A DNA stretch of 64,000 nt, taken from IMG/VR virus record IMGVR_UViG_3300019758_000009, positions 1 to 64,000 of that record, one strand, 5' to 3'. The notes beneath the pieces are model-generated. The model saw nothing but the letters and a program-made list of their open reading frames with translations. It was not told the DNA's origin and did no database searches. This document shows, piece after piece, positions 3,792-62,124 of the stretch. Numbering within the stretch: the first letter of the stretch is position 1; every line of letters starts with the position of its first letter. Source of the DNA: a virus. Position numbers and translations under genes: made by a program.

Positions 3792-4352
3792 CTAATCAAA
3801 ACCATCACCCCCGTCACCACCAGCGCAATAAATGTTGGTATCGTATATTGTTCTGTAGTTACTATCACCTCCAAGCCTAACTGATAATCTTCCGCTTCCA
3901 AATAGATTTAATCTACCCGTTTTTAATTTTTCAAGTCTTTTTATGGCTCTAAGGTAAGTTTCTTCATCCTTAGTTAGCTCAAATTCCTCTCCGTTATTAT
4001 TGGTTACTATTTGCCCTATATCGCATCAGAGGTCGGATTGTTTAGCTTTGCGCCTACACTTAGGGCAATCATGCTCTACTATATTATTACTCATCATCCC
4101 AGTTCCGTGACATAAATAGCAAGCTCCCGCCCCTTCGTTACTGGCCACAGCATCATTAATACTTGGCTCTTTTCCGGTAAGAGTCTCTATTTTGAATGAT
4201 CCGCTGCTAGTGATGGCATCGTGAATATTTTCTTCTATAAGGTCTCTTATTTCCTCTTTGGTTTCCGCATTAAGCTTTCTGCCTTTAAGTAGATCGCTAA
4301 AGCCCCACGTTTTGTCTTCTAGGTGGGCTGTAATTGTCATCTTTAAATCCAT
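3792..4352 (-). pseudogene. hypothetical gene with internal TGA (4028-4026); frame stays open 77 more codons to TAG 3794-3792
   Basis: Manual translation past the stop: SDL*CDIGQIVTNNNGEEFELTKDEETYLRAIKRLEKL...IYCAGGDGGDGFD*; upstream part has a CxxC...CxxC zinc finger. Confidence 0.5.
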
Positions 4353-4378
4353 ACGCTATATTTTATATATTCTTATTA

Positions 4379-7538: not shown

Positions 7539-8396
7539 TTAGTTGTTGTAAGTTATTTTTTCCGTCAACAAGATAGCCATTGCTGAATCCCGTAGAGTAT
7601 CGTTTCCATCAGTCATGTATTCTAAAGATGTTATCTTCTCTTCTATGTATAGACTAGCGAATTTCGGGTCATATTTTGATATACCCTTGACATTATGTAT
7701 TATGTCTGCATACTTTATGGTCTGTGAGTCACCACTTACAGTGCCTAATCTGTGGTTTTCTGCTGTTTTTCTGATGGCTCTGTTCAGTCCTGGGCAGCTT
7801 TTACCCGTAAAAACGTTCGTAAGCTCACTGACTGAGGTCTTGATGGCGAAAACTTCATAGCTAGCATACCCCATGAGATGTAAATCATCAGCTAATTCAT
7901 CAAGCGTCATATCTGTATCCTCTACGAGGTCATGAAGCAATGCGGCTGGAATGTTATAAGGGGTTACACAGCTCACTATTTTAGCCACAGCATAAGGGTG
8001 TGTCCAGTATTTATGTTTGCTGTACTTTCTCATTTGCTCGCCGTGTTTGCTCTTTACGTAATCCAAGAGTACTTTATCGGTGGCACAAAACTCAGATGGT
8101 GGCACTCCTGCGTTAACTAAGTTGGCGATAGCAATATCTTCCTGTTGCGATATCTGTTTTGTTACGATTTTATCTATATCTTCGCTTGGTAAATCCATAA
8201 ATCTATCTACATGCAGAACTCTTGGTACAGAATGCTTGTAGTTCATAGCGTTAAAAATTATCTCGGAGCAGTGACCGTCTAAGATTTCGTTATGTATTTC
8301 GGATATTTTTACCATCAGGTGCGAAGAACGCTCTCCAGAGCTTCCCTGGGTTGTGTGGGTCGATTTTTTAATACTAGATATATCCTGCACTACCAC
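7539..8396 (-). CDS. HD-domain hydrolase, RelA/SpoT-hydrolase (small alarmone hydrolase)-like
   Basis: HGEQMRKY..YWTHPYAVA, AALLHDLVEDT, IKYADIIHN motifs; extra ~110-aa N-terminus. Confidence 0.8.
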   Translation of the reverse strand: MVVQDISSIKKSTHTTQGSSGERSSHLMVKISEIHNEILDGHCSEIIFNAMNYKHSVPRVLHVDRFMDLPSEDIDKIVTKQISQQEDIAIANLVNAGVPPSEFCATDKVLLDYVKSKHGEQMRKYSKHKYWTHPYAVAKIVSCVTPYNIPAALLHDLVEDTDMTLDELADDLHLMGYASYEVFAIKTSVSELTNVFTGKSCPGLNRAIRKTAENHRLGTVSGDSQTIKYADIIHNVKGISKYDPKFASLYIEEKITSLEYMTDGNDTLRDSAMAILLTEKITYNN

Positions 8397-8719
8397 GCTT
8401 TGATCCTCCTTTTAGTTATTTTTATATACATCATACCATGAATAATGAAGGTTTCTCCGTCAACCGTCACCGTGTCTACCCCAGACGTAACCTTGTACGC
8501 TTTAAAGATAGTGTTCATCTTAATGTGCAGCAATACCGACCATCTAAACAACAGGCTGGTGTTGGTGGAGAAGGTCGTTATAGTTCTTAACAGCTCTCTC
8601 TTTTTGAGATTTGATAATGACTGCCAGTCAAACCTTGACCTGCCGCACTTATCTTCTGTGTGGTACCCAGGAAACAAGTCTTCTGAGAAGGTAAAGTAAA
8701 TTTCTTTTTTCTTTTTCAT
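8390..8719 (-). CDS. hypothetical protein
   Basis: 109 aa, AGCGT-ATG start, overlaps neighbours. Confidence 0.65.
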   Translation of the reverse strand: MKKKKEIYFTFSEDLFPGYHTEDKCGRSRFDWQSLSNLKKRELLRTITTFSTNTSLLFRWSVLLHIKMNTIFKAYKVTSGVDTVTVDGETFIIHGMMYIKITKRRIKAW

Positions 8720-9267
8720 ACGCTATAATTTAACTGGTCATTATTGATTGCTTCATCCCTGTACTTTTTGTCGTACTCCTCAGCAAGTTTATCGCGATTA
8801 GGTTGTGATGGCTCCATCTCTATGGTTGTTAGGTGGTTTAACAATATTGAATTGTCAAATGCATAACTTAATGCATCGCCACCGTTCATATTATTGACGT
8901 AGTAACGTTGGTGGAATTTTTCAATAATCTTCTTGGCTTCGGATATCTCAATCTCTATTACTTTACCGTGATACTTAAACGCTATTGCTTGATATGGTGA
9001 CAGCTGAGATACTGAATGCTGGTTGTATGCTGTGGTTAACTTAACAAATAGGTAAGATATTTCAGGGAAGTACACGCGGTCCTTCCATATCTGTATGCGT
9101 TTATTCCAGTCATCCATATCTACCTCGTACCGCTTATCAACCCATTCGAGCTTCATAATGTCGTTACGCTTCTTTATGGCGTTGGCCCTGCCTTCATCTG
9201 ACATACCGGCTATTGCTATGAGGAAATCTATCTTCCCTTCGATCCTATCTAATTGTGGATTTACCAT
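8716..9267 (-). CDS. hypothetical protein
   Basis: 183-aa ORF in the operon. Confidence 0.7.
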   Translation of the reverse strand: MVNPQLDRIEGKIDFLIAIAGMSDEGRANAIKKRNDIMKLEWVDKRYEVDMDDWNKRIQIWKDRVYFPEISYLFVKLTTAYNQHSVSQLSPYQAIAFKYHGKVIEIEISEAKKIIEKFHQRYYVNNMNGGDALSYAFDNSILLNHLTTIEMEPSQPNRDKLAEEYDKKYRDEAINNDQLNYSV

Positions 9268-10947: not shown

Positions 10948-12126
10948 CTACCCTTTAATCACAGCCAATGGCTGTAACTCTACCGTCGGCATAACCAGAT
11001 CGGTTTGGTTAGCCATAACTACATCGATAGATTTATATGCGCCAGGCGCTTCATCCAGCGCTTTTGTAGATGTCATGCCGTGGACAATTCCTTGGCTGTC
11101 TAGCATTTCTTTCTGGGCGGCAAAATCCAGGTTTTTCTTAGCTTGTGTTCGGCTCATCAGCCTCCCAGCTCCATGCGAACAGGAGTTGAACGACTCAGGG
11201 TTGCCCTTTCCAAATCCAAAATACGACTTAGTACCTTGTGAGCCCGGGATGATCACTGGAGTTCCGCTCTCTGCCTTTACAGCGCCTTTACGGTGAACTA
11301 ATACGTACTCACCAAAATGTTCTTCTACAGCGACATAGTTGTGCGTTACATCGTGCGAGGCTGTTACTTCTACTTCTGGGAAGTACGCCTTAAGAGAATC
11401 CATTACAAGATCACCCATTGTCTTGCGATTCAGTTTTGCGTACACTTTACACGTTATCATATCGCTAACATAGTTCTTAGCCTCCGTCGTATTCGTTGGC
11501 AGGAATGCTAACTTTAATTCAGAGTCAACTGCAGAATGCCAGTTTTTATTTAGTTTTACAGCGATCTTATCATGAGCCTGAGCGACTGTATGGCCAAGAT
11601 TCCTTGACCCAGAATGGATCATTATCCATATAAACCCATCGCTACCTTCCTGAATCTCTAAGAAGTGGTTTCCACCCCCGAGGGTCCCTAATTGCATCTC
11701 TGCATTTTCAATATGGTTCGACATAATTTCAGAGTTGGCCATCTCAAGCATTAATTTTTCGGGAATTTCAACAACTGGTGATTTACGCTTTGAGAATCCT
11801 GTCGGGATTTTATGCTTGGTATCATTTACCAAAGCCTTCAATGTCTGTAGGTCTATGCTAGTTAAATTAGTTCTAATTCCCAGCATACCGCAACCAATAT
11901 CTACTCCGACAGCATTAGGTATCACAACATCTCTAGTAGCTAAAACACCTCCAATAGGCACCCCCATTCCACCATGGACATCTGGCATGAGCGCTACGTG
12001 TTTGTATACAAATGGCAGCTTAGATAAATTGGTGGCCTGCTCAAGGGCTAGTTTATCAATATCTGACGATACGTTCTCAACCCATGCTTTAATCGGGACA
12101 GCTCCCGTTTCTTTCCAAATTTTCAT
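10948..12126 (-). CDS. rtcB: RtcB RNA 2',3'-cyclic phosphate/5'-OH ligase
   Basis: MPDVHGGMG.PIG, VGVDIGCGM, GTLGGGNHFLE, HSGSRNLG, HNY, VHRKGA, HGAGR, DEAPGAYK motifs. Confidence 0.97.
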   Translation of the reverse strand: MKIWKETGAVPIKAWVENVSSDIDKLALEQATNLSKLPFVYKHVALMPDVHGGMGVPIGGVLATRDVVIPNAVGVDIGCGMLGIRTNLTSIDLQTLKALVNDTKHKIPTGFSKRKSPVVEIPEKLMLEMANSEIMSNHIENAEMQLGTLGGGNHFLEIQEGSDGFIWIMIHSGSRNLGHTVAQAHDKIAVKLNKNWHSAVDSELKLAFLPTNTTEAKNYVSDMITCKVYAKLNRKTMGDLVMDSLKAYFPEVEVTASHDVTHNYVAVEEHFGEYVLVHRKGAVKAESGTPVIIPGSQGTKSYFGFGKGNPESFNSCSHGAGRLMSRTQAKKNLDFAAQKEMLDSQGIVHGMTSTKALDEAPGAYKSIDVVMANQTDLVMPTVELQPLAVIKG

Positions 12127-12148
12127 ACGCTATAATTTTTGTTCAGAG

Positions 12149-14623: not shown

Positions 14624-16567
14624 TTACAAATCTTTAAACTGCTCTATTGTCAATACATGGCAATTAGGGTCCTCTTTAGCCTTCACAACTTTACTGTTTG
14701 TGGAATTTGGGTTAGCTACTATGAGGTGGGTAATCTTCTTACTGTAAGATTTTTTAACCTCACCGCCCTCTTCTGTGATAGCTTTCTCAAGATCCTTATC
14801 CCTTACGCCACTGAAGCATGCTGTAACACCTAAATACTTACTGCCTTTAGGTTCCTGGGCCGGTGTTTTGATGTATTTGGGGTCTATGTGTGTACTAGCA
14901 TACCAGCTCGGGAAGTATTTGATACCTGCTTCAAATATAGCGATAGTCTTATCTGCCAGCCCTTTAACCTTGTTAAGGTTCGCAATATGCGAGTGGTCGA
15001 GTCCAGCGTAGTTGTCATACGTCATTATCTCTGTGATATAATCTGCAGGCAAATTATCCAGTATTAGCTGGAGTTTTGTTGAGCCGATGCCCGTGAACTC
15101 TCCAGACGCATGCATAATTTTCGCTAACGATTTTGAGCCGCTACGTAATGTTCGTACCTGATCGATTAGCTGCGATGCCGTGGCGTCTCCAAGGCCGTCT
15201 ACGGCTACCACTTCGTCGTGGGTTAAATTCAGTATCCTCGCAACTATCTGATAACCAGCGTTGAACAATTTCTCGATCGCGCTTTCTGCAAATTCTTCAA
15301 ATCCAAGGATTTCGAAGAATGAAACGATCTTCGCTAACTGCGCCCCTTTGCATCTTTCGTTTGAACACATAAGCTCTACGTAACTGCTGTTCCACTCGGT
15401 GCTGCTACCGCATGCTGGGCAAGTGTCAAATTCAGCTAGCATTTCACCCATAGCTTCTTCGTCGTAGCTTACTGTCTCTATAATTTTCGGGATTACCTCT
15501 CCAGATCTTTTTACCACAACCTTTGATCCCTTAGCTATGTTATTATCCACAATCCACTTCATGTTATAGCCAGTTGGGTTAGATACTTCTGCCCCTGATA
15601 AAATAACTCTTTCTAGAGCTACTGTAGGCTTTAAGAATCTCTGCTTGGATACCTTACAGTTTACAGAATTAACAGTTGTTTCGATACGCTCTTCAAAATC
15701 ACCTTTGTACGCCATAGCGTAATTAGGGTTACCTGTCCGTTCATCTCTTCCTAGCCTCTGCCTATCTTCTGCTGTTACAACGTTAATGACTAAACCATCG
15801 ATCTCGTAATCCTTATTCCATGAACTGTAAAGGCTATTCATTAGTTCGTCAGTTAAGTACTGAGCTCTAATGTAATACTGAGGGACATCAATAGCGTTGA
15901 TTTTGTTTAGTTCATCCATCATAGTTCTGAAATCCCCCATTTCTAACTCATCAGAGTAATACCTGAAGTAGTCCACATGTTTCAATAATAAACTTGGGGT
16001 ATCATTATTAAGCAGGCCAAGAACAGTGCCTCTAAGGGTTTTATATTCTTTGCCATCGCGAGGATTGGTCTGGCCCTTCCAGTAAGTATCCCAGTTTGCC
16101 CTGGAAATGATAAATTCTCCACCTGTAAATCTTAACGGGCCATTGTTTGGAGCGTTAATGATTTTTAAATGGTTATCGCTTCTTTGTCCTTCGTTCTCGT
16201 CACCTCCCCTTGTAAAGGCGGCTCCAGTGATTGAGTCATCCAATAATGATCCCCCGTCAAATTTAGGTCCTATCGCGATATAATCTGTTTCTGACAGGTT
16301 ATTCTTCCTTAGCCACTCGCTTACCTCTTTGAGGGTCTTTAGCTTTTTAAGGCTACGCATTGGTATTGGTAGCTTTTGTTTTCGTTCTCCTCGAAATGTA
16401 AATGGCTCAATATTTACGACGAAGGGGTGATTAGGGTGTTTTTCTGCGAATGCAACCTTATGTGCATCATACACTTCATCCGATATATCAGCTTCTCCGG
16501 TTCTGTACGACTTATTCCACGCCTTAAGCTTGTCAAGTAACTCTTTGTCTTTTAATGTTAATTCCAT
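14624..16567 (-). CDS. ligA: NAD-dependent DNA ligase
   Basis: PKFDG (KxDG), TRGG, EIDGLV, AMAYK, RSGEVIPKI, CPACG zinc finger, HhH repeats, C-terminal BRCT. Confidence 0.95.
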   Translation of the reverse strand: MELTLKDKELLDKLKAWNKSYRTGEADISDEVYDAHKVAFAEKHPNHPFVVNIEPFTFRGERKQKLPIPMRSLKKLKTLKEVSEWLRKNNLSETDYIAIGPKFDGGSLLDDSITGAAFTRGGDENEGQRSDNHLKIINAPNNGPLRFTGGEFIISRANWDTYWKGQTNPRDGKEYKTLRGTVLGLLNNDTPSLLLKHVDYFRYYSDELEMGDFRTMMDELNKINAIDVPQYYIRAQYLTDELMNSLYSSWNKDYEIDGLVINVVTAEDRQRLGRDERTGNPNYAMAYKGDFEERIETTVNSVNCKVSKQRFLKPTVALERVILSGAEVSNPTGYNMKWIVDNNIAKGSKVVVKRSGEVIPKIIETVSYDEEAMGEMLAEFDTCPACGSSTEWNSSYVELMCSNERCKGAQLAKIVSFFEILGFEEFAESAIEKLFNAGYQIVARILNLTHDEVVAVDGLGDATASQLIDQVRTLRSGSKSLAKIMHASGEFTGIGSTKLQLILDNLPADYITEIMTYDNYAGLDHSHIANLNKVKGLADKTIAIFEAGIKYFPSWYASTHIDPKYIKTPAQEPKGSKYLGVTACFSGVRDKDLEKAITEEGGEVKKSYSKKITHLIVANPNSTNSKVVKAKEDPNCHVLTIEQFKDL

Positions 16568-16632
16568 ATGCTATACTTTAAATGGGTATTGGTAATTCAG
16601 TGCGAAAATAATACTAATAATTGATAAAACCA

Positions 16633-16672: not shown

Positions 16673-17531
16673 AGAAATTAAGATCTATTATTGATTTTAT
16701 TTGATCAATATCTTTTTGCCTTCCCATATCTTTTTTAGCCTTAATGATATCAAAAACTGGCTGTATGCCAACCTCTTGTCCGGATAACGTGAATACAGAA
16801 ACATTATACTCAGAAGCCCTGTTAACTGTGTCTATAAGAATATCTACCTTTTTACCGCCATGCTCTAATCCTATCACGATCTTATCCAAGGTTTCGATAT
16901 ACTCGCTATCATTGAATTTATATACATTCAGATTGTGTAAAGCCTGTATAATGCTCATCTGTTCAGAGCTTGGTTGATAGATAATTATATCTACATCTTC
17001 AGGGGGATTAGGGAGTTTTAGCCCATGCATATCAAGAGCTACAGAGCCACCTATTCTAATGTTATCATGCCCGGACAAGCTATCGATTATACCTAAAACA
17101 AAATCCGGTATGTAAGTATAAATGGATGACCTTTGCTTTGCATCTACATTAATTAATGTATCGATTGAAGTTACCGGTTTCGCCGCTGTTTTAGGTGTCC
17201 CCTTACTTTCTTCTTTTTGAGATGCATATAAATCTATAAAGCTCTCCATTGATATTGAGGTAAGAACGTCTCCGTTATCGTCTTTGCCGATAAAGGATAT
17301 ACGAACATTACCTTGCGATGTTAACCAGATGTTAGCTGTAGCGGGATATGCGGCTCTTCCTCTTCCTGGGAGGCCGATTTCAACATTTGAGTCTCCGTAT
17401 AAAGATTTTAATCTAGATACTATAGTCTCCCAATCAGTCCTGCTGTAAGCTTCTACCAGCACTCCGTATTCACTTGCGTCAAAACGATTTCCACGCAATT
17501 TATCCGTTAATTTACATTTTTGTAATTCCAT
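16671..17531 (-). CDS. protein with C-terminal minimal nucleotidyltransferase domain
   Basis: IGGSVALDMHG...EDVDIII...KVDIL...AKKDMGRQKD. Confidence 0.75.
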   Translation of the reverse strand: MELQKCKLTDKLRGNRFDASEYGVLVEAYSRTDWETIVSRLKSLYGDSNVEIGLPGRGRAAYPATANIWLTSQGNVRISFIGKDDNGDVLTSISMESFIDLYASQKEESKGTPKTAAKPVTSIDTLINVDAKQRSSIYTYIPDFVLGIIDSLSGHDNIRIGGSVALDMHGLKLPNPPEDVDIIIYQPSSEQMSIIQALHNLNVYKFNDSEYIETLDKIVIGLEHGGKKVDILIDTVNRASEYNVSVFTLSGQEVGIQPVFDIIKAKKDMGRQKDIDQIKSIIDLNF

Positions 17532-17651
17532 ACGCTGTAATTTTTTAATTTAGGTCAAATGTAATACTAATAATTAACAAAAGCAAAAAAGAGAAGCAAC
17601 TTTTTACGGTTACTTCTCTTTTTATAAGTTATATTATTGCCTTTGTATATT

Positions 17652-19551: not shown

Positions 19552-20103
19552 TTAGTTATCGTCTTCCTCTTCCTCTAAATTAATAGGTAGATTAGCTTTG
19601 GTAGCTAATGCTACGTGCGTTATCTTTGTAATGAGAGCAGAATAAAGGTCCGTTACTTTACCGTTCACAATTTTATATGTGAAAGTAACATTTTTCAACT
19701 CATCCTCCAGCCTGATGATTGCATCTTTCTGCGATGATGCCGGCATGATGAATTTTTCCTTTACAACTTTTACCTTGTTTTTACCAGCTTCTTCCTCAAA
19801 AGCTACTGTTAACTCCCAGAACATATCCTCAAACTCGTAAGGAATATACTCCACGAATGAACCGGCCGTGTCCGGGGTATAGGCGATAACGTCGTTAAGA
19901 CTGACACCTGAAAATTGAACTCTTTCAATTTTATCGACAACTGTATTGTCTGTGTAGTTGGTTAGGGTGTTAAGGTAATCCTGAGCTACAACCTCAGCTT
20001 CCGTAAATGAAGAAACCTCCAATAATACAACGCGTTTTCTAACGCTTAACTCTCCTTCTGAGTTTTCAGCCGTGATACGGCCTGTGATTTTAAATAAATT
20101 CAT
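19552..20103 (-). CDS. DUF4494-like protein
   Basis: LLEVSSFTEAE motif and duplicated-domain layout typical of this Bacteroidota family. Confidence 0.7.
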   Translation of the reverse strand: MNLFKITGRITAENSEGELSVRKRVVLLEVSSFTEAEVVAQDYLNTLTNYTDNTVVDKIERVQFSGVSLNDVIAYTPDTAGSFVEYIPYEFEDMFWELTVAFEEEAGKNKVKVVKEKFIMPASSQKDAIIRLEDELKNVTFTYKIVNGKVTDLYSALITKITHVALATKANLPINLEEEEDDN

Positions 20104-20137
20104 ACGCTATAATTTTAAATTCGATGCAAAGGTAACA

Positions 20138-22342: not shown

Positions 22343-22453
22343 AAGCTAGCTTGTTTGTTTATCGATTTTTACTTTATGGTGCAAATATATAAAAAAAACT
22401 TTAAATAGCAAATAAAGCGCTCTTTATTTCTAATTTCACTGCATAAATAAACC

Positions 22454-24159: not shown

Positions 24160-25014
24160 GTGCAGGCTGAAGCATCGAAAAATGACCTTGATGGAATAAA
24201 GGACATCACAAACGACGAGTACGTTACCTTATTAGCTATTTTAAGAGGGTTTTTAGAGGATTTCTATAACAATCCATCTCTATATATGACCCATACAGAA
24301 TTAATGGAACAGAGGGCTGTATTCGCTCTTAATCATGCATTCAATGGTTACGGGTTATCTTTTGAGAGAGCTATGAACATCGTGAAGCTTGAAAATAACG
24401 ACGGTTTAACGGATATCCAAATCGAAGAACGGGACATGCTTATAGGCCTGATAGATAACATCATAAACTTCTCGGTTGCCGCTGAGCATCAAACGTTAAT
24501 GAGTATATCTGAAGACAGAGAAAAGTCTGTAGATATGGAAGAATTTATGATTACGGCCATCAATACATTTTCCAAATACAACAAGACTTACGCAGGTATT
24601 GAGAATGAAGATATTTTCTTTGCATTAGGATTGGCAGCTGAATGGCTTAGGTTCGATGCTGAAACGATACTTCAATTCACAACTCAAGGCGATGAGAGAG
24701 TAAGGGATTCTCACAACGCCATAAATGGGCTAAGATACAGGAAGAAGGACTTCCCAGCTGCTTTGATACCCCCAATTGACCATGGGTGCAGGTGCTATTT
24801 GATTGATACAGGATCGACCGATGGTCGCAAGCTTACTAATAAGCCGAATGTATCAAAACTAATAGACGACGCTACAAACCCAGCCTTTAAATACAACGTG
24901 GCCACTTCTGGCCAAATGTTTGGTGAAGACCATCCGTATTTTGAGATTGGTAGCTCATATTTATCTATACTGGGAGCTACGGTGACCAAGATAAAAAGCA
25001 ACTTAGGTTTATGA
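24160..25014 (+). CDS. head morphogenesis protein (Mu gpF / SPP1 gp7-like); probably also made as a -1 frameshift fusion to portal
   Basis: TQGDERVRDSH...PPIDHGCRC motif; frame open back through the slippery site at 24079. Confidence 0.85.
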   Translation: MQAEASKNDLDGIKDITNDEYVTLLAILRGFLEDFYNNPSLYMTHTELMEQRAVFALNHAFNGYGLSFERAMNIVKLENNDGLTDIQIEERDMLIGLIDNIINFSVAAEHQTLMSISEDREKSVDMEEFMITAINTFSKYNKTYAGIENEDIFFALGLAAEWLRFDAETILQFTTQGDERVRDSHNAINGLRYRKKDFPAALIPPIDHGCRCYLIDTGSTDGRKLTNKPNVSKLIDDATNPAFKYNVATSGQMFGEDHPYFEIGSSYLSILGATVTKIKSNLGL

Positions 25015-25451
25015 GAATGTTAAAGCCTGACCAATTTCTGCGTGAGCTCCGGAATATGCAAAGTAAATTCGAAACAGAGCTATTCCGGGCCAGACAAGAA
25101 ATCGGAACCTATGCCGTAAACCACTTCCAGTCATCCTTCAGTAAAGGAGGATTTGCTGGAGGAGGTAGTTCCTGGAGAGATAGAGAACATTCTTATTCTC
25201 ATAAAATGCTAGACAAAACAGGAAGTATGAAAGAGGCTATTAATTTTAGAGCTTACAATACGTCTAACAATATTGTCGTATCAGCCACTAAGTCGTATGC
25301 AAGATTCCATAACGATCCGGATGGGTCATGGGCTAGAAATCAACACACAAGCAAGACCACACTGCAAAGGCAGTTTATAGGCAACTCAAGGCCTATGGAG
25401 CTGTGGATCAAAAGCAGATTGCAGGCGATGCTAACAAATACATTTAGATAA
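25011..25451 (+). CDS. virion morphogenesis protein (Mu gpG-like)
   Basis: LDKTGSM, YARFHN, QRQFIG motifs. Confidence 0.75.
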   Translation: MRMLKPDQFLRELRNMQSKFETELFRARQEIGTYAVNHFQSSFSKGGFAGGGSSWRDREHSYSHKMLDKTGSMKEAINFRAYNTSNNIVVSATKSYARFHNDPDGSWARNQHTSKTTLQRQFIGNSRPMELWIKSRLQAMLTNTFR

Positions 25452-26062
25452 TGAAGGAATTATATTTAGCGATAAAAGAAATCATCTTAAACATACCCGA
25501 TATATCGGACCCTACTCAAAAAATGTTTAAGACAGTAAAGATAGACAAAGGACAATTCCAGAGAGTGATCAGTAACGTGGAGAACGAAGAGATGGGCATA
25601 ATTTTCCCTGCTGTATTTATACATTTTGTAAATGTATCTTATCTTGTAAGTCAGAACCATATAGGGGAAGGCAGAGGTACAATGAGAGTTAGGTTTGTAC
25701 TAGATAGATTGAATGACCAGGAGGATGAATTCGAGACAGAAATCTTTGACTACGCAGCAATAATCAACGCTGCAATTCAGGATGCTAGGAACACCAACGC
25801 CCAACTAGGAGAAAGGTGTGACCTCCAATATTTCGACATGCCAGAATCAGTTTCCAGAGGACTACAACCATGCTGGCTTGATTACGGTGTTAATTTTAGA
25901 GATATGTCCGCGTTCACGTTCAGAGATTATATCAAAAAGACTATCGCAACACCAGCCCATACAAACTTCTCAGACATGACAGAGGAAAATAGAGACGGTA
26001 GAGTAGATGTGATAGTAGATATACCGACTCAATCAAAGATGAGAGACGAAATATCTGAATAA
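25451..26062 (+). CDS. putative head-tail connector / tail terminator
   Basis: FPAVFIHF motif and position. Confidence 0.55.
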   Translation: MKELYLAIKEIILNIPDISDPTQKMFKTVKIDKGQFQRVISNVENEEMGIIFPAVFIHFVNVSYLVSQNHIGEGRGTMRVRFVLDRLNDQEDEFETEIFDYAAIINAAIQDARNTNAQLGERCDLQYFDMPESVSRGLQPCWLDYGVNFRDMSAFTFRDYIKKTIATPAHTNFSDMTEENRDGRVDVIVDIPTQSKMRDEISE

Positions 26063-26094
26063 CCATTTAGCCTATGGTGGCTCTATTATAAAGA

Positions 26095-26163
26095 AAGGGT
26101 TTTCCATACGCTATACAATAAATCCTAAAAATGCTCATCCATTGTCTTGGGTGGGCATTTTTA
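26095..26163 (+). ncRNA. putative late small RNA antisense to the AGCGT-AUG start context of early/middle genes
   Basis: Late promoter at 26061-26092; hairpin 26096-26126 with loop UCCAUACGCUAUACAAU; terminator hairpin 26127-26162; 5' end approximate. Confidence 0.65.
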
Positions 26164-26228
26164 CTTTGTAAACTATTTGCAATAAGCGTATCTATTATTA
26201 AATATAAAAACACTATAAATATTTGCCG

Positions 26229-27548
26229 ATGGATATAAAGAAATTCCAATTTATCGAAGGCAGTATCGCGACAGGTGAAGTAGCGACTATTAGATTTTTT
26301 GATTCTGTTGACGCATGGTCAGTAAGTTCGTTTGTTGACGAATTTCATTGGCTTGAGAATTATGTAAAACCTTCAAAAATTAAGATCCTAATCAATTCAG
26401 AGGGTGGGTCAGTTTTAAGAGGTATGGGGGCGTTCTCCGCTATCATAAACTCAGAGGTACCAACAGAAACAATTGTCGAGGGTCTTGCAGCATCTATGGG
26501 ATCTGTCCTATTGGCAGCTGGTGGCGTAGCTAAAATGCGCGACTACGGTATTATTATGCTTCATAATCCATTTGGGGGTAATGACCCAAATGATCCAATG
26601 GTCCTGGCTTTTAAAGACCAGTTGAAGGTAATCTATAAAAAACGATGGGGGTTCAGCGATGAACGTATCACTGAAATTATGGATGGCCCAGAGGATGCGG
26701 ATGGGACATATATGAATGCTGAAGCTGCTGTCGAATATGGTATAATGCATCAGGACAATGTAATACAAACTCCACTACAGGATAAAGAGTCGATACTAGC
26801 TAAACTAGACACTTCAAACTCAACTGTTAATTACGGAGAGGTATTTTCATGCTCATGCCCTGTTAACTCAAACATTAAACCATCTCTTGATAATTTATCT
26901 AATATTAAGAGTGAAGGGAATACAGTTCCCAATGATAACAATAATAACCAACAAAATTCCAACACTATGGAAAACAATTTTGAAGCGGTAGTAGCTACTC
27001 TTGAATTAGCTAAGAATTCTACTCCAGCTGATGTTATGGCTAAAATTGTTGCTTTGAATAAAGTTGAAGCAAAAGTAGCAGCCTTAACTCAGGATAATGC
27101 AACCCTAACTCAGGATAATGCAGACCTTGTAATTGCTAAAACAGGATTACAAACAAGCCTAGAAACAGTAACTGGTCAGTTAACCGACAAAGAGACTGAG
27201 CTTACTTCGGTAAAAGCAGAATTGCAGGCTTTTCAAGATGAAAAGATCGCCAAAGTAAAAGCTGAGCAAGAGGCCGTTATTGACGACGCGATCAAAGCAG
27301 GTAAAATCAAAGCTGAATCCAAAGATCAGTGGGTATCTATGGCCAACATGAATTTCGACACTGTAAAATCTACCTTAGATTCTATGCCAGGTAAAACTGT
27401 TATTTCTCAAGAGATTGTAGCAGACGCTGGATCAACATTCGTAAGCGAGGGTGGGGTACAGCTAACAGACGAAGAGGTAAAAGCTAAAGAGCATGCCGAT
27501 AAAATCAAAGCAGTGGTTGGCGATATCACATACACAAAATTAGCTTAA
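26229..27548 (+). CDS. ClpP-type prohead protease fused to coiled-coil scaffold
   Basis: INSEGGSV, EGLAASMGS (Ser), IMLHNP (His), YMNAEAAVEYG; C-terminal coiled coil. Confidence 0.9.
   Translation: MDIKKFQFIEGSIATGEVATIRFFDSVDAWSVSSFVDEFHWLENYVKPSKIKILINSEGGSVLRGMGAFSAIINSEVPTETIVEGLAASMGSVLLAAGGVAKMRDYGIIMLHNPFGGNDPNDPMVLAFKDQLKVIYKKRWGFSDERITEIMDGPEDADGTYMNAEAAVEYGIMHQDNVIQTPLQDKESILAKLDTSNSTVNYGEVFSCSCPVNSNIKPSLDNLSNIKSEGNTVPNDNNNNQQNSNTMENNFEAVVATLELAKNSTPADVMAKIVALNKVEAKVAALTQDNATLTQDNADLVIAKTGLQTSLETVTGQLTDKETELTSVKAELQAFQDEKIAKVKAEQEAVIDDAIKAGKIKAESKDQWVSMANMNFDTVKSTLDSMPGKTVISQEIVADAGSTFVSEGGVQLTDEEVKAKEHADKIKAVVGDITYTKLA
26967..27548 (+). CDS. nested in-frame scaffold protein (internal start)
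   Basis: In-frame ATG after an A-rich leader; internal late promoter AACCA-N16-CTAATATTAA at 26878-26908. Confidence 0.6.
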   Translation: MENNFEAVVATLELAKNSTPADVMAKIVALNKVEAKVAALTQDNATLTQDNADLVIAKTGLQTSLETVTGQLTDKETELTSVKAELQAFQDEKIAKVKAEQEAVIDDAIKAGKIKAESKDQWVSMANMNFDTVKSTLDSMPGKTVISQEIVADAGSTFVSEGGVQLTDEEVKAKEHADKIKAVVGDITYTKLA

Positions 27549-37728: not shown

Positions 37729-39234
37729 ATGGCAACACTACAAGAGAACATAGATGCTATGGATTTAGCGTTTTCTACGCACATGAAGAATAAAAACCCT
37801 GGCGTAGATACAGCTACAATTCAAAATATTGAAGACTTCTCATTAGCCTACGCTACAGCCATAGCTAATGCCATTGGAGCCGGAAGCTCTGGGGATACAG
37901 GTGTCTCTGGTGATTACGTAAAAAAGACAGGAGGGGCTGACGGCGTTATGGCCGGCAGCCTAAGCGCTAACTTTGGATTCAAAGCCGGATGGAATGCCAC
38001 TAACCAGATAGACACAACTATAAATGGGTTAATGCTAAACGGAGCGATAGATCACCAGACAGGCGTATTTAAGGGGCACGGAAAAGAATTGATTGAACAC
38101 AGCTCATTATGGGTAAATATAAACGGTAACGACGAATTCACTTCCGGAGTTACATTAGGGGGCGCTGAGACAAAAGTAAAGACTAGGTTACTCGTAGGGC
38201 AATCCCCAAGCACGGGACTAGTCGCCGATGGCTCGATCTTAAACTATAAAAATTTCGCCATTTACCATGCTGGTAATTCCAATAAATCAGACGTAAACTG
38301 GAGTATGCGCGACGCCGTTGTGTCTGCCACCTTAAGTGTCTCTGGTATATCATCTTTTACAGGGGGTGTATCTGCCAATAGCGGTTTTAGCGCCGGTGTT
38401 TCGGGAGCGAAAAGCTTAGAGGTATTAGCTGATGGTGTAAATATCTACAACGATATCATACTTTCCAGCAACAAAGGTATAAAAAGCGGCTTTAATAACG
38501 ATTACATACTCAAAGACTTTAATGATGGCAATGTAGGGGTATCGGCCGCAGGGGAAAATATTATACTCGGCTATTCAAATACAAAGAAAATAACTCTATC
38601 TACCGACATATACAATAACAACGGTTCAAGATTACTAATAGATAAGTTCGGGGTAGGTAGCTTCCTATGGGGATTTAATGCCGGATATGAGGGAAACAAA
38701 TGGTTTGAGACCACCCAGTTAGGAGCTCAAGTCAATGGTAAGTTGTTTTTCAATGACACTAACTCATACATACAAGAAGGAGCTGGTAATTCCATGAGAT
38801 TCAGTACTGCGCATGGGTATGTAGATATAGGACCCAAAAATACCGCGTATGCACACATAGAAACGGACAGAGGTAAATTCTTCTTTAACAAAAATACCGA
38901 GACTAATGGAACTGTAGGTATATACAATTCAGAAACCCATTTAGCTAACGGGAAGCTATTCTTAACTGCAAGCAATTACCTATTGAACACCACAGACGGC
39001 ATAGCTCACTACGGTAATTCATACATCAAAGGAAGTATTGGGACATCCTCTTTTTCTACAGGATTTTCCGGTAACGGGTGGCAAATAACGCAAAACGCTG
39101 AAGCCACATTCACTGACCTTACAGTAAGAAATAAATTACATGTGTATGAATTCGAAGTACAGAAAATAACAGCCGTCAATGGATCATTCTGGGTATCAGC
39201 TAATTGCTCTGGATCTACAGTAACAAAACTTTAA
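37729..39234 (+). CDS. tail/baseplate structural protein
   Basis: G/S/N-rich beta protein; FSTGFSGNGW...LTVRNKLHVYEFEVQKI..VNGSFWVS tail motif. Confidence 0.65.
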   Translation: MATLQENIDAMDLAFSTHMKNKNPGVDTATIQNIEDFSLAYATAIANAIGAGSSGDTGVSGDYVKKTGGADGVMAGSLSANFGFKAGWNATNQIDTTINGLMLNGAIDHQTGVFKGHGKELIEHSSLWVNINGNDEFTSGVTLGGAETKVKTRLLVGQSPSTGLVADGSILNYKNFAIYHAGNSNKSDVNWSMRDAVVSATLSVSGISSFTGGVSANSGFSAGVSGAKSLEVLADGVNIYNDIILSSNKGIKSGFNNDYILKDFNDGNVGVSAAGENIILGYSNTKKITLSTDIYNNNGSRLLIDKFGVGSFLWGFNAGYEGNKWFETTQLGAQVNGKLFFNDTNSYIQEGAGNSMRFSTAHGYVDIGPKNTAYAHIETDRGKFFFNKNTETNGTVGIYNSETHLANGKLFLTASNYLLNTTDGIAHYGNSYIKGSIGTSSFSTGFSGNGWQITQNAEATFTDLTVRNKLHVYEFEVQKITAVNGSFWVSANCSGSTVTKL

Positions 39235-39243
39235 ATAAATTGT

Positions 39244-42200
39244 ATGGCACTAATAACATCAGACAGATTTAAAATAGCGATAGGCCCTGACTCTAACAAA
39301 GTTCAGGGCCTACACGTTGGCGATGTAGTATTGCGTAAATATTACAATAACACCACGCAATTCTATTCTTTATTAATAGTAGACGAGATCGGCACCAACC
39401 CAACCGAAGGAGATTTCTTTATAGGTAAACTAATAGATGGCATGGAGCCTGGAGCTACTGGTACTGAGCTACTAGATTTTGTTAGAGTTACTAGCGTGAT
39501 GGATACAGATAGAATGGGGGCCCTGTATATGACGGGATCGGAATCTAATGCTCCATTTTTGGATGTAGTAGATAATCTTGGTAGAGACGCCTCTGTGTTC
39601 TGGCCAGAAGGAAAAGATGAAAATGTTGGCTATTTTATGCCGGATAACGCGTACGCTTCTAGCTACTACAACTCAACAGATAGGCACTTTTATATCATCA
39701 AAACATCAGCCACTCCAGATTCTAATTCGATTCAGGTAAAAATGAAACTTGAAGACAAACTATCTGTAGGTACAAAATATTTGATATCATACAAATATCT
39801 ATGTACAACCCCAGCCAGTATTACATCAAGGATATCAAACAGCGACTCCAGTCAGCCAAGCGCTATGTGGACAGACGACTACATTAACGAATGGAAGTAT
39901 AAGGCAGAAGTCTTTGAATGTACATATGTAGGGGCTGATACGCATTTTATATTATCTACGGGAACAGCAGGCGTGGGTAGCAGACTATCGATATCAGACT
40001 TTAATATCATACCAGTTGATTCATTGATTAACAGGAAGTCCGATTTAAAATCAAGAATAGGCAAGCTGTACGGCGTCAATGACAATGTGTTCGGGGAAAT
40101 ACAAGGGTACGGCGGTTATTTTAAAAGATTATACGCTACTCAAGATGTAAATATAGCCGGCACACTAACGGCTGGCGATGCAAATGGTTTTGGTAACACA
40201 TTTATGGCCGGTAGAATTAGAAAAAACTTACTAGCTAACAGCGAGACAGTGTTAGGGGCTGGAGTCAGAGCTGTTGGCGCTGTAATAAACACTAAAGCTC
40301 CCACAAAACTAACCGATAACGCAACCAGGTATACAATATCTACGGGAACGTCATCCCCACAGATAACAACCACCGCTGAAATACAGGCAGGAAAAACATA
40401 CACTTTTTCAGTATGGATAAAGCCATCCTCTTCTTTAGGTGTAAGCTGTGATAGGTTTAAAGTTATATTTCACGCCCCACCCTTAAAAGGTCTTTACGAT
40501 TCTAATTACAAGATATCTAGTGGAGATTTAAAATTTGAAGAATGGTCCCGTATCTCCGTTACAGGAACATTCTCAGGAACAGGAATCCATCCAGCTCAAT
40601 GTATAATAGATATCGATAGATTAGCCGCGGAGAATGGAACCATAGATGTATGGGGTTGGCAAGTCGAAGAAGGTGACCTTGCTACGTCATACCAAAAAAC
40701 AGACAACGTTATATCATCAAGTGATGATTACGGAATGTGGGCCAACAGAGGTGGTTTTGGAGGTACCATGCAAAACCCGTTACTGAAGCTAAATAGTGAC
40801 GGAACAATAATTGGTGGTGATAATAAATTGATACTAAGGCCTGACGGGTCAGCCGAGTTTAATGGAGAGGTAGTTATAAAGGATTCTTTAGGTAATCCTA
40901 TGGATGTTGAGGCGGTCATGGATAGCAAGATATCGACGTATGATACTAGCCTTGGAGCTTTAGCCAAAAAGGATTCAGTAACAGAAGCTTTTATCGATAA
41001 CAATGCTATATCATTATCTAAATTGGGAGTCACTGTAATTTCCGGGGGCAAGATAAAAACAGACATCCTGAACGCAGTAGAAATCCAGACAGCTACAGTA
41101 ACAGCCGCCAAAATAAATGGATTAACATGTACTTTTGGCCAAGGAACAATAGGAGGGTGGGATATATCTCCTACCAGCTTATCTAAGGGCAATATCGTTA
41201 TATCAAGTGATGGCGAAATAAGGAACACAACTGGGGCTTGGATGTTCAGGAATTTAGGCTCAGGAATTATCGCTAATGGTAATATATCATGGGACAACGC
41301 CGGCAATGTAACCTTTACGGATGCTGTAAAACTAAACTGGGCTAATTCAGCCAATGGTATAGAATTCAGATACATAAGAGATTGGCAGAATGGATCTACA
41401 GTTAATACCGGTAACTACTGGTACAATGTAAGTGTATTTTCTGGCTCAGAAGACATAGCAATAGGGGCAACCATTATCGCTAGTGCCACGAGCGGTAATC
41501 TGGAAAGAATAGTTGACGGAGTAACAGATGGGAGCACGGGGTACGGGGGTATGCCAGGAATAACTAAGCCGGAATACATCCAAATAGATTTAGGCTCTAT
41601 CCGCAAAGATATCGACTACATCCAGCTATATCCATACTTTAATGACGGCAGGACATTTCACGATACCAAAACTGAAGTATCTAAAGATGGCGTTACATGG
41701 GTGACTGTTTTAGATAGTAAAGTTAGCGGCACATGGGCTACATCACCTCTTGGCAAGCGCATATCTATAAATGATAATAGCAGATTAACTAAAATAACAA
41801 ACGCAGGAATATATACTGGGTCAATCACAGCTGACCAAGTAAATGCAGCCAGAGTCACTGTGCTAGGTGATGTTACTGCAGGATCTTTTAATATTGGGAC
41901 AGGGAAGTTTTCTGTGACAAGCGAAGGAGCCTTAACGGCATCTGGCGCTGATATATCTGGAAAGATAACAGCATCAAGCGGTAAAATAGCTAATTGGAAT
42001 ATCTTAGATAACGAACTAAGGTATGAGGATAACTCAGACGGTCTAGGGGTAAGGAGGATATCATTAAAAGCCGTACCTCCAGGCCAGCCAGTGTCCGGCA
42101 CGGGGGGCGCTGGGTTGTCGTTTTACAGTGGCGCACCAGCACCGGGTATGAGAGCTATGCAGGTAGGCCAGGTATGTAATAAGGGCACTTTTGGCAATTA

Positions 42201-44235
42201 TAGCAATAATGATTTTGGAATAAACATAACCGCTGTAACCGGATCTACTTTATTTAGAGCGGCTACAGACAGCGCTCTTATAGCTGGATGGGAATTTAAC
42301 ACCGAAAAGATGTGGGGTGGGGCCGAATTTAGGTCTGGAGCAGGCGTGGAGATAAGTAACATCGATAAGCGTTTCATGACGTATAAAGATGCTAACAATT
42401 ACTCAAAGATGTACTACCAAGACCAGGATAACTGGGGTGTGCAGGGCGTGAATAATAACAGTGAGATATTCCATCTTGGAAGTAAAAATATAATAGGTGG
42501 ATGGCTCTTTTCAGACACAAAACTATCTAAAACTCTTCCAGACGGCAACTCTATGGCGCTTGGTGAATCAATAAGTTCACCGCTATATCAGGGGCTAGAG
42601 CTAAAAACACCAACTGGTGACGGCATTATTTTAGCCATGATGAGTACAGGCGGTGACTTTATATTTTCCGTTAAGAAAAACGGGGAAAGTATAATGAATA
42701 TAAGTCCGTTTGGAGCTAAAATAGCCGGATGGGATCTTAGTAGTTCAGGATTGTCATCCGGAGCCATAGAATTATCCAGCTCTGGCATGATAAGGCATGC
42801 GTTTGATGCATGGAGATTCAATTCAGATGGTTCAGGTGTGCTGGCCAGAGGTAATATATCATGGGATGCTAGCGGCAATGTATCTTTTTCTCCAAACGTA
42901 AAACTTGGATGGGGGCAAGTAGAAGATATGGGGATTAATAAGCCTATGATATTCAAAGATGACACCGTCAGAACGGTCCCAAAAGCTACAGATTTCGCCG
43001 GAGGTGTCAAATACACTATTACTACAAATACATCAGGTAAGGGGTTAATTAAGGTTCAATCGTCTGGAGATGGAGGTGAGATATTTGTAGGTCTTAATGG
43101 TTCTGAAGTAGGTATTATGAACGAAAATCTTGCCGATGAGACGAAATGGTACGGTTTTGAAGTAGACCTAGTGAAGGGCAGTAATTTAGTGTCTGTATGG
43201 ACAAAGGATGTCTATAGTGGGGGTCAAGTTATATCTGTAAAAATTTATGGTGATGGCGATTCTAAATTCTTAACACAGATAGATAGTAACGGTATATATA
43301 CAGGGACATTAACAGCTGACCAAGTAAACGCCGTTAGCATTAATGCTGACAGCATAAAAGCTGGAACTATATCAGCTAGCAGGATCGATACAGGAAGCAT
43401 AACCTCGTTGGGCAACATCACATCTGGATCTTTCAGCTTGGGAAGCGGTAAGTTTTCCGTCTCTGATGCTGGATTTTTAACAGCTAAAGAAGGAACAATA
43501 GGGGGGTTCAGGATTACAAGCTGGGAAATTGCAACATCCAACTTTTACACAGGTGGAGCGGACAACAGAATGGGTCTCAACGCATCAAACGGAACTTTAT
43601 ACATGCTAGATAGCGACAACAGGATGTCATCTGTCTCATCAGACGGTATACTAGCTAACAACGCAAAGATCCAGAACATATCAGGCACAAGCGGCATAAA
43701 ACTTAGATCATCACTGTCAGGCAGGGGGTATTCTACAGCAACTGAAGTATGGGAAGGCAACTCTCATAAAGAGTACATAGCTGGTGTGTATTGCTCTACA
43801 AATACACCGACTACTAACTCAGCTCCAGCTTACTCTATGTGGTCAGAAGGCACTTCAAGGCTTAATGGCGCTATAGTTAGTAGAGCTAGATTTTTGTCTG
43901 TCGCTAGCAATTCAAGTATCGATAAAGAGGATATAATGCGAAGTAATGTTATGGTAGTAAAATGTACCGGCACTACTGATCCATATCTGTACCTACCTTC
44001 ATCTTCGCAGATGAACAGATGGTTCGGGACCAGCTTAGGAGATATAACGTACAGGTTAACTATTATCAGCGAGCATGACTCAACTAGAAACTTCAGGCCA
44101 GCTAGATATTACCACTGGAATGGGGCGTACAGCGCTAATGGTGAGTTTTGGTTAGCCCAAGGAGATAGTGCGGAGTTTATCTACATATCACAAGGCACTG
44201 GCGGCTATTGGCAATACATAAATCACAGATCATAA
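39244..44235 (+). CDS. large modular tail fibre / receptor-binding protein
   Basis: 1663 aa; repeated GxIGGW and ITADQVNA fibre motifs; galactose-binding/discoidin-like inserts. Confidence 0.75.
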   Translation: MALITSDRFKIAIGPDSNKVQGLHVGDVVLRKYYNNTTQFYSLLIVDEIGTNPTEGDFFIGKLIDGMEPGATGTELLDFVRVTSVMDTDRMGALYMTGSESNAPFLDVVDNLGRDASVFWPEGKDENVGYFMPDNAYASSYYNSTDRHFYIIKTSATPDSNSIQVKMKLEDKLSVGTKYLISYKYLCTTPASITSRISNSDSSQPSAMWTDDYINEWKYKAEVFECTYVGADTHFILSTGTAGVGSRLSISDFNIIPVDSLINRKSDLKSRIGKLYGVNDNVFGEIQGYGGYFKRLYATQDVNIAGTLTAGDANGFGNTFMAGRIRKNLLANSETVLGAGVRAVGAVINTKAPTKLTDNATRYTISTGTSSPQITTTAEIQAGKTYTFSVWIKPSSSLGVSCDRFKVIFHAPPLKGLYDSNYKISSGDLKFEEWSRISVTGTFSGTGIHPAQCIIDIDRLAAENGTIDVWGWQVEEGDLATSYQKTDNVISSSDDYGMWANRGGFGGTMQNPLLKLNSDGTIIGGDNKLILRPDGSAEFNGEVVIKDSLGNPMDVEAVMDSKISTYDTSLGALAKKDSVTEAFIDNNAISLSKLGVTVISGGKIKTDILNAVEIQTATVTAAKINGLTCTFGQGTIGGWDISPTSLSKGNIVISSDGEIRNTTGAWMFRNLGSGIIANGNISWDNAGNVTFTDAVKLNWANSANGIEFRYIRDWQNGSTVNTGNYWYNVSVFSGSEDIAIGATIIASATSGNLERIVDGVTDGSTGYGGMPGITKPEYIQIDLGSIRKDIDYIQLYPYFNDGRTFHDTKTEVSKDGVTWVTVLDSKVSGTWATSPLGKRISINDNSRLTKITNAGIYTGSITADQVNAARVTVLGDVTAGSFNIGTGKFSVTSEGALTASGADISGKITASSGKIANWNILDNELRYEDNSDGLGVRRISLKAVPPGQPVSGTGGAGLSFYSGAPAPGMRAMQVGQVCNKGTFGNYSNNDFGINITAVTGSTLFRAATDSALIAGWEFNTEKMWGGAEFRSGAGVEISNIDKRFMTYKDANNYSKMYYQDQDNWGVQGVNNNSEIFHLGSKNIIGGWLFSDTKLSKTLPDGNSMALGESISSPLYQGLELKTPTGDGIILAMMSTGGDFIFSVKKNGESIMNISPFGAKIAGWDLSSSGLSSGAIELSSSGMIRHAFDAWRFNSDGSGVLARGNISWDASGNVSFSPNVKLGWGQVEDMGINKPMIFKDDTVRTVPKATDFAGGVKYTITTNTSGKGLIKVQSSGDGGEIFVGLNGSEVGIMNENLADETKWYGFEVDLVKGSNLVSVWTKDVYSGGQVISVKIYGDGDSKFLTQIDSNGIYTGTLTADQVNAVSINADSIKAGTISASRIDTGSITSLGNITSGSFSLGSGKFSVSDAGFLTAKEGTIGGFRITSWEIATSNFYTGGADNRMGLNASNGTLYMLDSDNRMSSVSSDGILANNAKIQNISGTSGIKLRSSLSGRGYSTATEVWEGNSHKEYIAGVYCSTNTPTTNSAPAYSMWSEGTSRLNGAIVSRARFLSVASNSSIDKEDIMRSNVMVVKCTGTTDPYLYLPSSSQMNRWFGTSLGDITYRLTIISEHDSTRNFRPARYYHWNGAYSANGEFWLAQGDSAEFIYISQGTGGYWQYINHRS

Positions 44236-57811: not shown

Positions 57812-57822
57812 AACTATAGCGT

Positions 57823-60645: not shown

Positions 60646-60987
60646 ATGCCAGAAATAGAAGAACAAAAAGCAATAGAGACCACGAAACAGAGCCGTCAAA
60701 AGCTTTCAAGAAAAGACCGCAGAAAAACAGACGCTGTACAGGATAAATTCTTATCCATACTGGGAAGTTTTTATGGTACCATATCAAAAAAGGGGAAACA
60801 GCTTACAGATGACGAGTTAAGGTCTGAGTTTTCAAAGCATAACACAGCCTGGGTAAAGGTTTGCGTTAACAATAAGTTAGATAAAAAAGCGAAAGCATTA
60901 TTTGCATTGGAAATTCAACAGACATGGGAAAAGAAAAAAGCGAAGTCAGAAGCTGCTCAGAAGGAAACTGCAGAAGCACCTCAATAA
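60646..60987 (+). CDS. hypothetical protein
   Basis: 113-aa ORF in the operon. Confidence 0.65.
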   Translation: MPEIEEQKAIETTKQSRQKLSRKDRRKTDAVQDKFLSILGSFYGTISKKGKQLTDDELRSEFSKHNTAWVKVCVNNKLDKKAKALFALEIQQTWEKKKAKSEAAQKETAEAPQ

Positions 60988-61541
60988 CAGAAAAAGAAAG
61001 AAACGATTTATTCCTAAAGTACGTAATGCCTAATGAAGGGCTAATAAAGAAGATATGTCTAGAACTAACTAATAACCCAAGCAATGTTGACGATCACTTT
61101 CAAGAGTGCTTGGTTAATCTTTTTAGATATATCCACACTTATGATCCCGATAGAAAGCTGTTAACCTGGATATACATATGCACAAAGCGTCACGTTATCG
61201 AGCTCGAAAAGAAAGTAGCTCGGTACAAAGAGGACTTAATAGAACCCGCAAAGGTTCACAATAAGTTCACAATAATTGACGATGTCAGTAATGAGTTAAC
61301 TATGGAGAATTACACCAACGAGTTATCTGACGAGTGCATAGTGGCCCTTGACAGCATGCAGCCCATTTACAAGAATACATTCTTGATGAAATTGATGGGG
61401 TACAAACTGAAGGAAATAATGGATCATGAATACAAAAACGGCAATCTGAAGCACAGGAATATAGAAACTGTAAAAAGCAGATTATTCCTGGCCAGGAAAC
61501 ACCTTCAGAGGCATTTATCTGAATTCTATGACAAAGGATGA
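60924..61541 (+). CDS. ECF-like sigma70 factor (candidate late sigma)
   Basis: Region 2 DDHFQE..VNLFRYI.TYD..LLTWIY and region 4 GYKLKEI...ETVKSRLFLARK. Confidence 0.88.
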   Translation: MGKEKSEVRSCSEGNCRSTSITEKERNDLFLKYVMPNEGLIKKICLELTNNPSNVDDHFQECLVNLFRYIHTYDPDRKLLTWIYICTKRHVIELEKKVARYKEDLIEPAKVHNKFTIIDDVSNELTMENYTNELSDECIVALDSMQPIYKNTFLMKLMGYKLKEIMDHEYKNGNLKHRNIETVKSRLFLARKHLQRHLSEFYDKG

Positions 61542-62121: not shown

Positions 62122-62124
62122 CGT

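Follow-up and report, generated by a model that had tools for sequence, protein, structure and literature searches.

Our preferred reading of a short intergenic unit in the genome of an uncultured phage is that it encodes a small RNA, made late in infection, that would pair across a tagged start codon shared by many non-structural genes and block their translation, and we put the odds of this at about even (roughly 0.5). The source genome is a 79.8-kb assembly (40% G+C) from a microbial-mat metagenome, and the window, the whole stretch of DNA that was analysed, is its first 64 kb. A leftward non-structural arm starts at about 22.3 kb and includes RtcB, an NAD-dependent ligase and an Ant-like protein, the virion genes run rightward from 22.8 kb with portal, protease/scaffold (26229-27548) and sheath, and a second non-structural block from about 55 kb encodes an SbcC-like protein, a Sigma70_r2 protein, a primase, a DnaE-type polymerase and a lysozyme. 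What is new here is the comparative sequence evidence that the unit, its loop and the tag are conserved in relatives; full-text literature searches gave no published description of such a phage anti-start RNA.

The nearest cultured relative is the Bacteroides phage BS-TP1, with 37% identity in the protease. Distant homologues occur in Muribaculaceae, Bacteroides and Prevotella assemblies, and a scan of genome contigs returned distant relatives only, at no more than 39% identity. The host is likely a member of the Bacteroidota, because gene starts in this genome follow A-rich tracts instead of Shine-Dalgarno sequences.

The whole small-RNA unit is held in the 166-nt gap between the gene at 25451-26062 and the protease gene (Table 1). 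An earlier note on this DNA had described a miniature transcription unit in this gap between two head genes, and its promoter, stem, loop and terminator were all found where that note had placed them. Hairpin 1 has a 7-bp stem (AGGGUUU/AAAUCCU) and is thermodynamically weak, with a large loop; the terminator abuts it with zero spacer, and the promoter and gene of the protease follow directly downstream. The plus-strand fold of 26093-26170 has a minimum free energy of -24.7 kcal/mol (z -4.95, with none of 200 shuffles as good) against only -14.1 kcal/mol (z -1.65) for the minus strand, which bears out the plus-strand orientation previously argued from G-U pairs. The core of the loop, CCATACGCTATA, complements TATAGCGTATGG exactly, so that the proposed reverse complementarity between loop and start tag also holds.

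Table 1. Positions of the small-RNA unit, the late promoters, the phage sigma factor and tagged gene starts (window coordinates unless marked otherwise).
Feature	Position	Strand	Basis or remark
-35-like box AACCA, late-class promoter	26061-26065	+	AACCA-N17-CTATT motif repeated before late genes
-10-like box CTATTATAAA	26083-26092	+	17 nt after AACCA
Hairpin 1 (arms 26096-26102 and 26120-26126, 17-nt loop 26103-26119)	26096-26126	+	RNA fold
Anti-tag core CCATACGCTATA, exact complement of TATAGCGTATGG	26104-26115	+	12 columns invariant across the window, L001 and L072
Intrinsic terminator (stem 26132-26141 and 26148-26157, plus U tract)	26127-26167	+	RNA fold, plus-strand bias
Late promoter of the protease gene (26229-27548), AAACT-N17-CTATTATTAA	26170-26201	+	Motif match
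Late-class promoter sites	22737, 26061, 26170, 30989, 31688; in genome coordinates 73879, 77674, 79484		
Phage sigma factor, Sigma70_r2	60924-61541	+	Pfam domain; own start untagged
Best predicted target, start of 108-aa gene	4348-4361	-	13 nt contiguous; predicted duplex -20.3 kcal/mol
Tagged start, 109-aa gene	8715-8728	-	11 nt; tag overlaps the end of the upstream ORF
Tagged start, RtcB RNA ligase	12122-12135	-	11 nt contiguous
Tagged start, NAD-dependent DNA ligase	16563-16576	-	13 of 14 nt (start 16567)
Tagged start, 286-aa gene	17527-17540	-	11 nt
Tagged start, 183-aa gene	20099-20112	-	11 nt; L072 ortholog tagged too
Tagged start, 774-aa AAA_23 (SbcC-like) gene	57814-57827	+	11 nt
Tagged start, 461-aa gene	62116-62129	+	12 nt contiguous; Pfam finds no family

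A search of positions 25000-27500 with Rfam cmscan at E values up to 10 returned three hits at chance level, with C4 (RF01695) not among them, and blastn of the small-RNA region against GenBank phages gave no match. Contigs from four other sequencing runs left 25776-26198 uncovered.

The late promoter that the earlier note had read in front of the hairpin was recovered, and it is one of a recurring class. Its strict form, AACC(A/T/C)-N17-CTATT(A/C/T)T, stands upstream of the portal, protease, 31054 and tape-measure genes, and beyond the window it precedes gene 73948, a gene at the end of the genome and the tRNA/tmRNA cluster; one copy falls inside gene 37729-39234. A looser AA[AC]C pattern has 16 matches against 2.2 in shuffles, a count that includes several overlapping, one-base-shifted matches at a single site, and all but one of them lie on the plus strand. 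The promoter class shows an AAC-containing -35 box, a spacer of about 17 nt, a conserved -10 box and recurrence in a genome that encodes a sigma factor, as is typical of ECF-sigma-type promoters. On the strength of the AAC-containing box and the Sigma70_r2 protein, we consider that a phage ECF-like sigma (60924-61541) probably reads these late promoters.

The complement of the loop core is found where the preferred reading needs it, at the starts of the non-structural genes. Genome-wide, AGCGTATG has 15 copies, of which 13 are at non-structural starts spanning both arms, one is the loop and one lies elsewhere, and it is present at none of the 26 structural-gene starts; the claim that this motif marks the starts of many non-structural genes is thereby upheld. 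The form TAGCGTATG has nine exact copies in the window, eight on ORF start codons and one as the complement of the loop, and with up to one mismatch it occurs 30 times against 11.9 expected, a count that none of 100 shuffles reached. This tag is the most over-represented start context of the genome, and at all 13 gene sites it stands on the sense strand in a fixed register with the ATG. It comprises 8-11 nt adjoining the ATG, frequently lies inside the preceding ORF and comes without promoter or hairpin; upstream of the tags nothing is conserved except an A-rich tract.

Wherever at least 11 nt are complementary to the loop, the match keeps register with a start ATG, and the ORFs concerned encode 108-774 aa. 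The longest contiguous matches are 13 nt at start 4352 and 12 nt at 62125, followed by 11 nt at starts 7527, 8719, 12126, 17531, 20103 and 57823. The matches that had been listed for 4352, rtcB, sbcC, 8719 and 20103 are all among these, and the near-match at ligA was recovered with a single mismatch in 14 nt. The start that had been assigned to a helicase does carry its 12-nt match; Pfam finds no family for this 461-aa gene. Predicted loop duplexes of -10 kcal/mol or stronger form at 28 start regions, where shuffled loops average 3, and those of -13 kcal/mol or stronger are found at 11 of 38 genes in the left arm and 7 of 27 in the right arm versus 1 of 26 late genes. Degenerate variants of the tag, read by eye, showed no bias towards G-U-compatible changes.

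Two other uses of the tag were considered and rejected. As a T7-like promoter it would call for a single-subunit RNA polymerase, and none was present among the proteins scanned, a scan that did not extend to some 10 ORFs of the left arm and several large ones, 39244-44235 among them; conservation upstream is limited to the A-rich tract. The idea that the tag is matched by an extended anticodon loop in a phage tRNA-Met was also discarded, as this loop is a normal CUCAUAA.

Searches based on the protease gave two further lineages for comparison, one consisting of L001/L075 (a 4.6-kb contig) and the other of the L072 group (L072-L074, L076-L079 and L145), in which the L072 contig extends to 66.8 kb. 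The flanking proteins are 50-65% identical between this phage and the two lineages, and the three-lineage comparison excludes the closer protease relatives P0002 (60%), P0003 and P0005-P0011. In the same gap, both L001 and L072 have a CTATTATTA(C/A) box, a hairpin and a plus-strand terminator, followed by the protease promoter, which fits the earlier expectation that the RNA would be kept upstream of the protease gene in related phages. The -10-like box sits 13-15 nt upstream of the stem in all three lineages. The -35 box of L001 is imperfect (AATCT), while the hairpin promoter of L072, AAACA-N18-CTATTATTAA, is of the same type as its portal-gene promoter, and the late bipartite motif is kept in L072 before orthologous genes as well as before the hairpin.

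Within this conserved layout the loop is the part that has held still. In a gap-free alignment of 31 columns (window, L001 and L072), the 12 loop bases CCATACGCTATA are invariant, while the neighbouring intergenic bases and the stems have diverged. The stems of the three lineages read AGGGUUU/AAAUCCU, GGGC/GCCC and AGAAGU/ACUUCU, and over these three lineages 85.7% of the cells in the stem alignment pair, with compensatory changes on both sides at 4 of the 7 pairs. Shuffles of the flanks yield equally good stems at p = 0.02, 0.04 and 0.05 per lineage. Folding favours the plus strand throughout, with -24.7, -24.8 and -23.3 kcal/mol where the minus strand reaches -15.6, -17.3 and -19.1 kcal/mol, an advantage of 4-9 kcal/mol, although extra 3' sequence in the L072 unit brings alternative folds. 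A G+C-rich hairpin and a U tract on the transcribed strand, the hallmarks of an intrinsic terminator, are present in all three lineages, and in L001 and L072 only the plus strand has the U tract behind the stem. The unit's own promoter and terminator, together with a conserved loop seed on a compensatory stem, are the features looked for in a trans-acting small RNA, the -35 box being weaker in L001; on the target side, the predicted sites stand at mRNA starts and are conserved in L072 and L074.

If the unit were an ordinary double-hairpin terminator whose loop matched the tag by accident, the coincidence would not have to be extreme, as one exact 9-mer is expected about 0.3-0.6 times per 160 kb of two-strand sequence on a base-composition estimate. 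Such an accident would, however, have to account for 12 bases that stay fixed in three lineages amid diverging surroundings, and for a match to precisely the start context that is most over-represented in the genome, and we find it scarcely credible. Nor does coding explain the conservation. No conserved ORF was found in the unit on either strand in the three lineages compared, and an ORF on the plus strand from an ATG in the terminator, with 35, 27 and 7 codons in the three lineages, was rejected as unconserved. The minus strand of the loop is a perfect tag with its ATG, so one could picture a tiny peptide translated from there, or an antisense decoy of the tag. The ORF in question has 11, 9 and 4 codons with unrelated residues in the three lineages, and we discarded it as a peptide gene on these grounds; the G-U pairs and the U tracts speak for the plus strand, and the sole recognisable promoter faces the plus direction; a minus-strand product of either kind is very improbable.

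The tag can be followed in L072 and L074, where the early arm was read for 11 genes. Seven or eight of these 11 carry (T)AGCGT-ATG or a one-base variant, and the exact tag was found on none of the late genes of L072/L074. Only two or three of the tagged-arm early genes are orthologous to genes of the phage studied here. The tagged genes being mostly non-orthologous, this comparison indicates that the tag belongs to the gene class and is not merely inherited with particular genes. Loop and tag are both invariant where read in the three lineages and so do not co-vary there, and differences at the periphery of the loop do not follow the flanks of the tag.

Beyond these lineages the signal stops, and hairpin and tag occur together in one clade. 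Among the relatives listed, about 40 (L080-L120, with 35-41% protease identity) have no hairpin before the protease gene and show only a CTATTCTTG-type box shortly upstream of the protease ATG. No recurrent start context was seen in the relatives' loci of at least 12 kb, a weak test since these loci are mostly late region, and the tag is absent from the whole 99.8-kb genome MT835494. In this distant gut relative (MT835494.1; L071:2870-3000) the protease gene is preceded by a gap of about 125 nt in which TTCCATAAAT(G/A)G stands twice and a CTATTATA box once, which may constitute a different small element. A scan of IMG/VR with a 15-mer of the loop gave 69 matches, all but L001 unrelated and mostly in one coding stretch of a marine phage family, and a search with the pattern CTATT-N(8-30)-CCATACGCTATA added only the L077/L079 group among the 80 listed of 111 stretches. 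As a separate observation, some 45 marine viral contigs (L002-L069), unrelated to this phage, share a highly conserved coding stretch that contains the 15-mer CCATACGCTATACAA.

The same tags also mark places where genes have been exchanged. L072 and L074 are 99.4% identical and differ by an early-gene cassette (L072:3899-5047 versus L074:1266-2953), and their homology stops exactly after '...ttatagcgtATG', the ATG of the tag, and restarts exactly at the next 'aattaagcgtATG'. Given this exact coincidence of tags with cassette-exchange breakpoints, part of the prevalence of the tag may reflect recombination and not regulation. There is a precedent in the PeSLs of T4-type phages, conserved regulatory sequences at early-gene boundaries that serve as cassette-exchange junctions (PMC2839356, PMC4122927). 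The tag resembles them in coinciding with such junctions in L072 and L074 and in behaving there as the breakpoint of a mobile cassette would; a PeSL, however, is an early promoter plus a terminator stem-loop of about 50-70 bp, whereas the tag spans 8-11 nt, includes the ATG and has neither an early promoter nor a stem-loop.

If the tag worked solely at the DNA level, either by linking shuffled cassettes through microhomology or by binding a protein, then the intergenic copy would simply be an inverted one and the hairpins would do nothing but terminate the upstream operon. The breakpoints that fall exactly on tags and the known regulatory cassettes at shuffling junctions of T4-type phages (PeSLs, PMC2839356, PMC4122927) are what such a model would lead one to expect. 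It leaves unexplained, however, why three different self-complementary stems bracket the motif, and why the gene sites keep a fixed sense-strand ATG register in 13 of 13 cases; an inverted repeat of a recombination linker would moreover invite inversions, yet it has been retained. A promoter role on DNA finds no support either, the incomplete protein scan having turned up no single-subunit RNA polymerase. We judge a purely DNA-level role to be decidedly improbable. The regulatory and recombination roles may instead coexist, and one can tentatively picture the tag as a start-codon 'address' in a clade of Bacteroidota-type phages, at once the docking site for a class-wide shut-off RNA and the microhomology for cassette swaps, an idea that we entertain as possible while rating it well below even odds. 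If this dual role were true, a gene acquired via the tag would automatically join the temporal programme.

For the late anti-start RNA itself, the predicted sequence of events is short. Transcription would start late from the AACCA-N17-CTATT promoter, probably through the phage's own ECF-like sigma, and would yield an RNA of about 70 nt, spanning roughly 26096-26167 on the plus strand as predicted from the motifs and folds, in which a 5' hairpin is followed directly by the intrinsic terminator. The 17-nt loop would present CCAUACGCUAUA, and its predicted partner is the tag UAUAGCGU-AUG-G(A), carried by about 18-25 non-structural genes of the two arms at their start codons, with 11-13 contiguous base pairs in the duplex. 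Since the host most likely does without Shine-Dalgarno pairing and the duplex would lie over the AUG, masking of the AUG would be expected to suffice to exclude the 30S subunit, and translation of the tagged class would stop during expression of the virion genes. A point against this reading is that a single RNA would need to titrate about 20 mRNA species. Instead of a separate RNA, the effector could also be the portal-operon transcript, whose 3' end would carry the same hairpin. The earlier proposal of one address silenced by one late RNA therefore stands in its conserved parts, namely unit, loop, promoter and tag, while its transcription, the pairing in vivo and the repression are things that we infer.

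Pairing between loop and tag could be real and still have a different outcome, such as activation or protection of the tagged mRNAs, guidance of a nuclease, or control of the terminator, and any such outcome draws on the same conservation and complementarity as repression does. In the terminator-control version, early tagged mRNAs would bind the nascent loop and modulate read-through into the protease and capsid genes. The arrangement is suggestive in this respect, as the hairpin abuts the terminator just upstream of the protease promoter and gene and would lie in the 3' end of the portal-operon transcript. Control of read-through seems unnecessary, however, because a late promoter between the terminator and the protease gene serves that gene in each of the three lineages. 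More generally, the predicted duplex covers the AUG, which blocks initiation in known cases, and we regard an outcome other than simple repression as unlikely, if less so than the alternatives at the DNA level.

The known cases in which phages shut off their early genes in time mostly involve proteins, such as RegA, RegB and Alc of T4. The sites of RegA overlap or abut the AUG of some 30 early mRNAs and RegA blocks formation of the initiation complex, and RegB cuts GGAG in the initiation regions of early genes (PMC3014915). Shut-off by the late anti-start RNA would be akin to both in silencing an early class through a feature common to its start sites, but RegA and RegB are proteins and the predicted effector here is an RNA. 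The address differs as well, in that the RegA site is loose and A/U-rich whereas the tag is a sharp 8-11 nt sequence that would be read by Watson-Crick pairing.

Phage RNAs with exposed antisense loops do exist. The c4 RNA of P1 and P7 and the CI RNA of P4 use exposed loops to pair with repeated sites in mRNA and so block a ribosome-binding site or transcription. The unit described here would likewise give a phage-encoded small RNA with an exposed loop complementary to repeated sites in phage mRNA, but c4 and CI serve immunity and have two or a few target sites within a single operon, whereas the targets predicted here number about 20 and are dispersed over two arms. Among cellular RNAs, RNAIII and the Rsa RNAs of Staphylococcus aureus use UCCC loops as seeds, and GibS of Bacteroides demonstrates that trans-acting small RNAs exist in Bacteroidota, which lack Hfq. 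A hairpin-loop seed followed by a terminator, and the reach to many mRNAs through a common motif of the initiation region, would be shared with these; their seeds address generic Shine-Dalgarno sequences or individual cellular targets, in contrast to a private tag that includes the start codon and belongs to one temporal class of phage genes.

If the late anti-start RNA proves true, one tiny RNA and a start-codon address would perform early-gene shut-off. Translation initiation in Bacteroidota is, to our knowledge, poorly understood and genetic tools for them are scarce, and the system would then amount to a simple, portable and programmable translational switch for this group. It would also tie regulation to genome plasticity, with the same tag marking the junctions of cassette exchange.

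Several observations on the genome stand apart from the small RNA. The HD-phosphohydrolase gene at 7539-8396 on the minus strand has a GTG start behind a classic AGGAGG Shine-Dalgarno sequence, the sole case seen in a genome whose other genes have A-rich leaders. In the strand-switch region at about 22380-22420, on the minus strand, TTTG-N19-TATATTTG fits the consensus of the Bacteroidota housekeeping promoter and fronts the leftward early arm. A cluster of six tRNAs at L346:14968-16380 (genome 77968-79380) has a late-class promoter upstream and includes a tRNA-Met whose anticodon stem has the three G-C pairs characteristic of initiators, and ARAGORN calls a permuted tmRNA within the same cluster.
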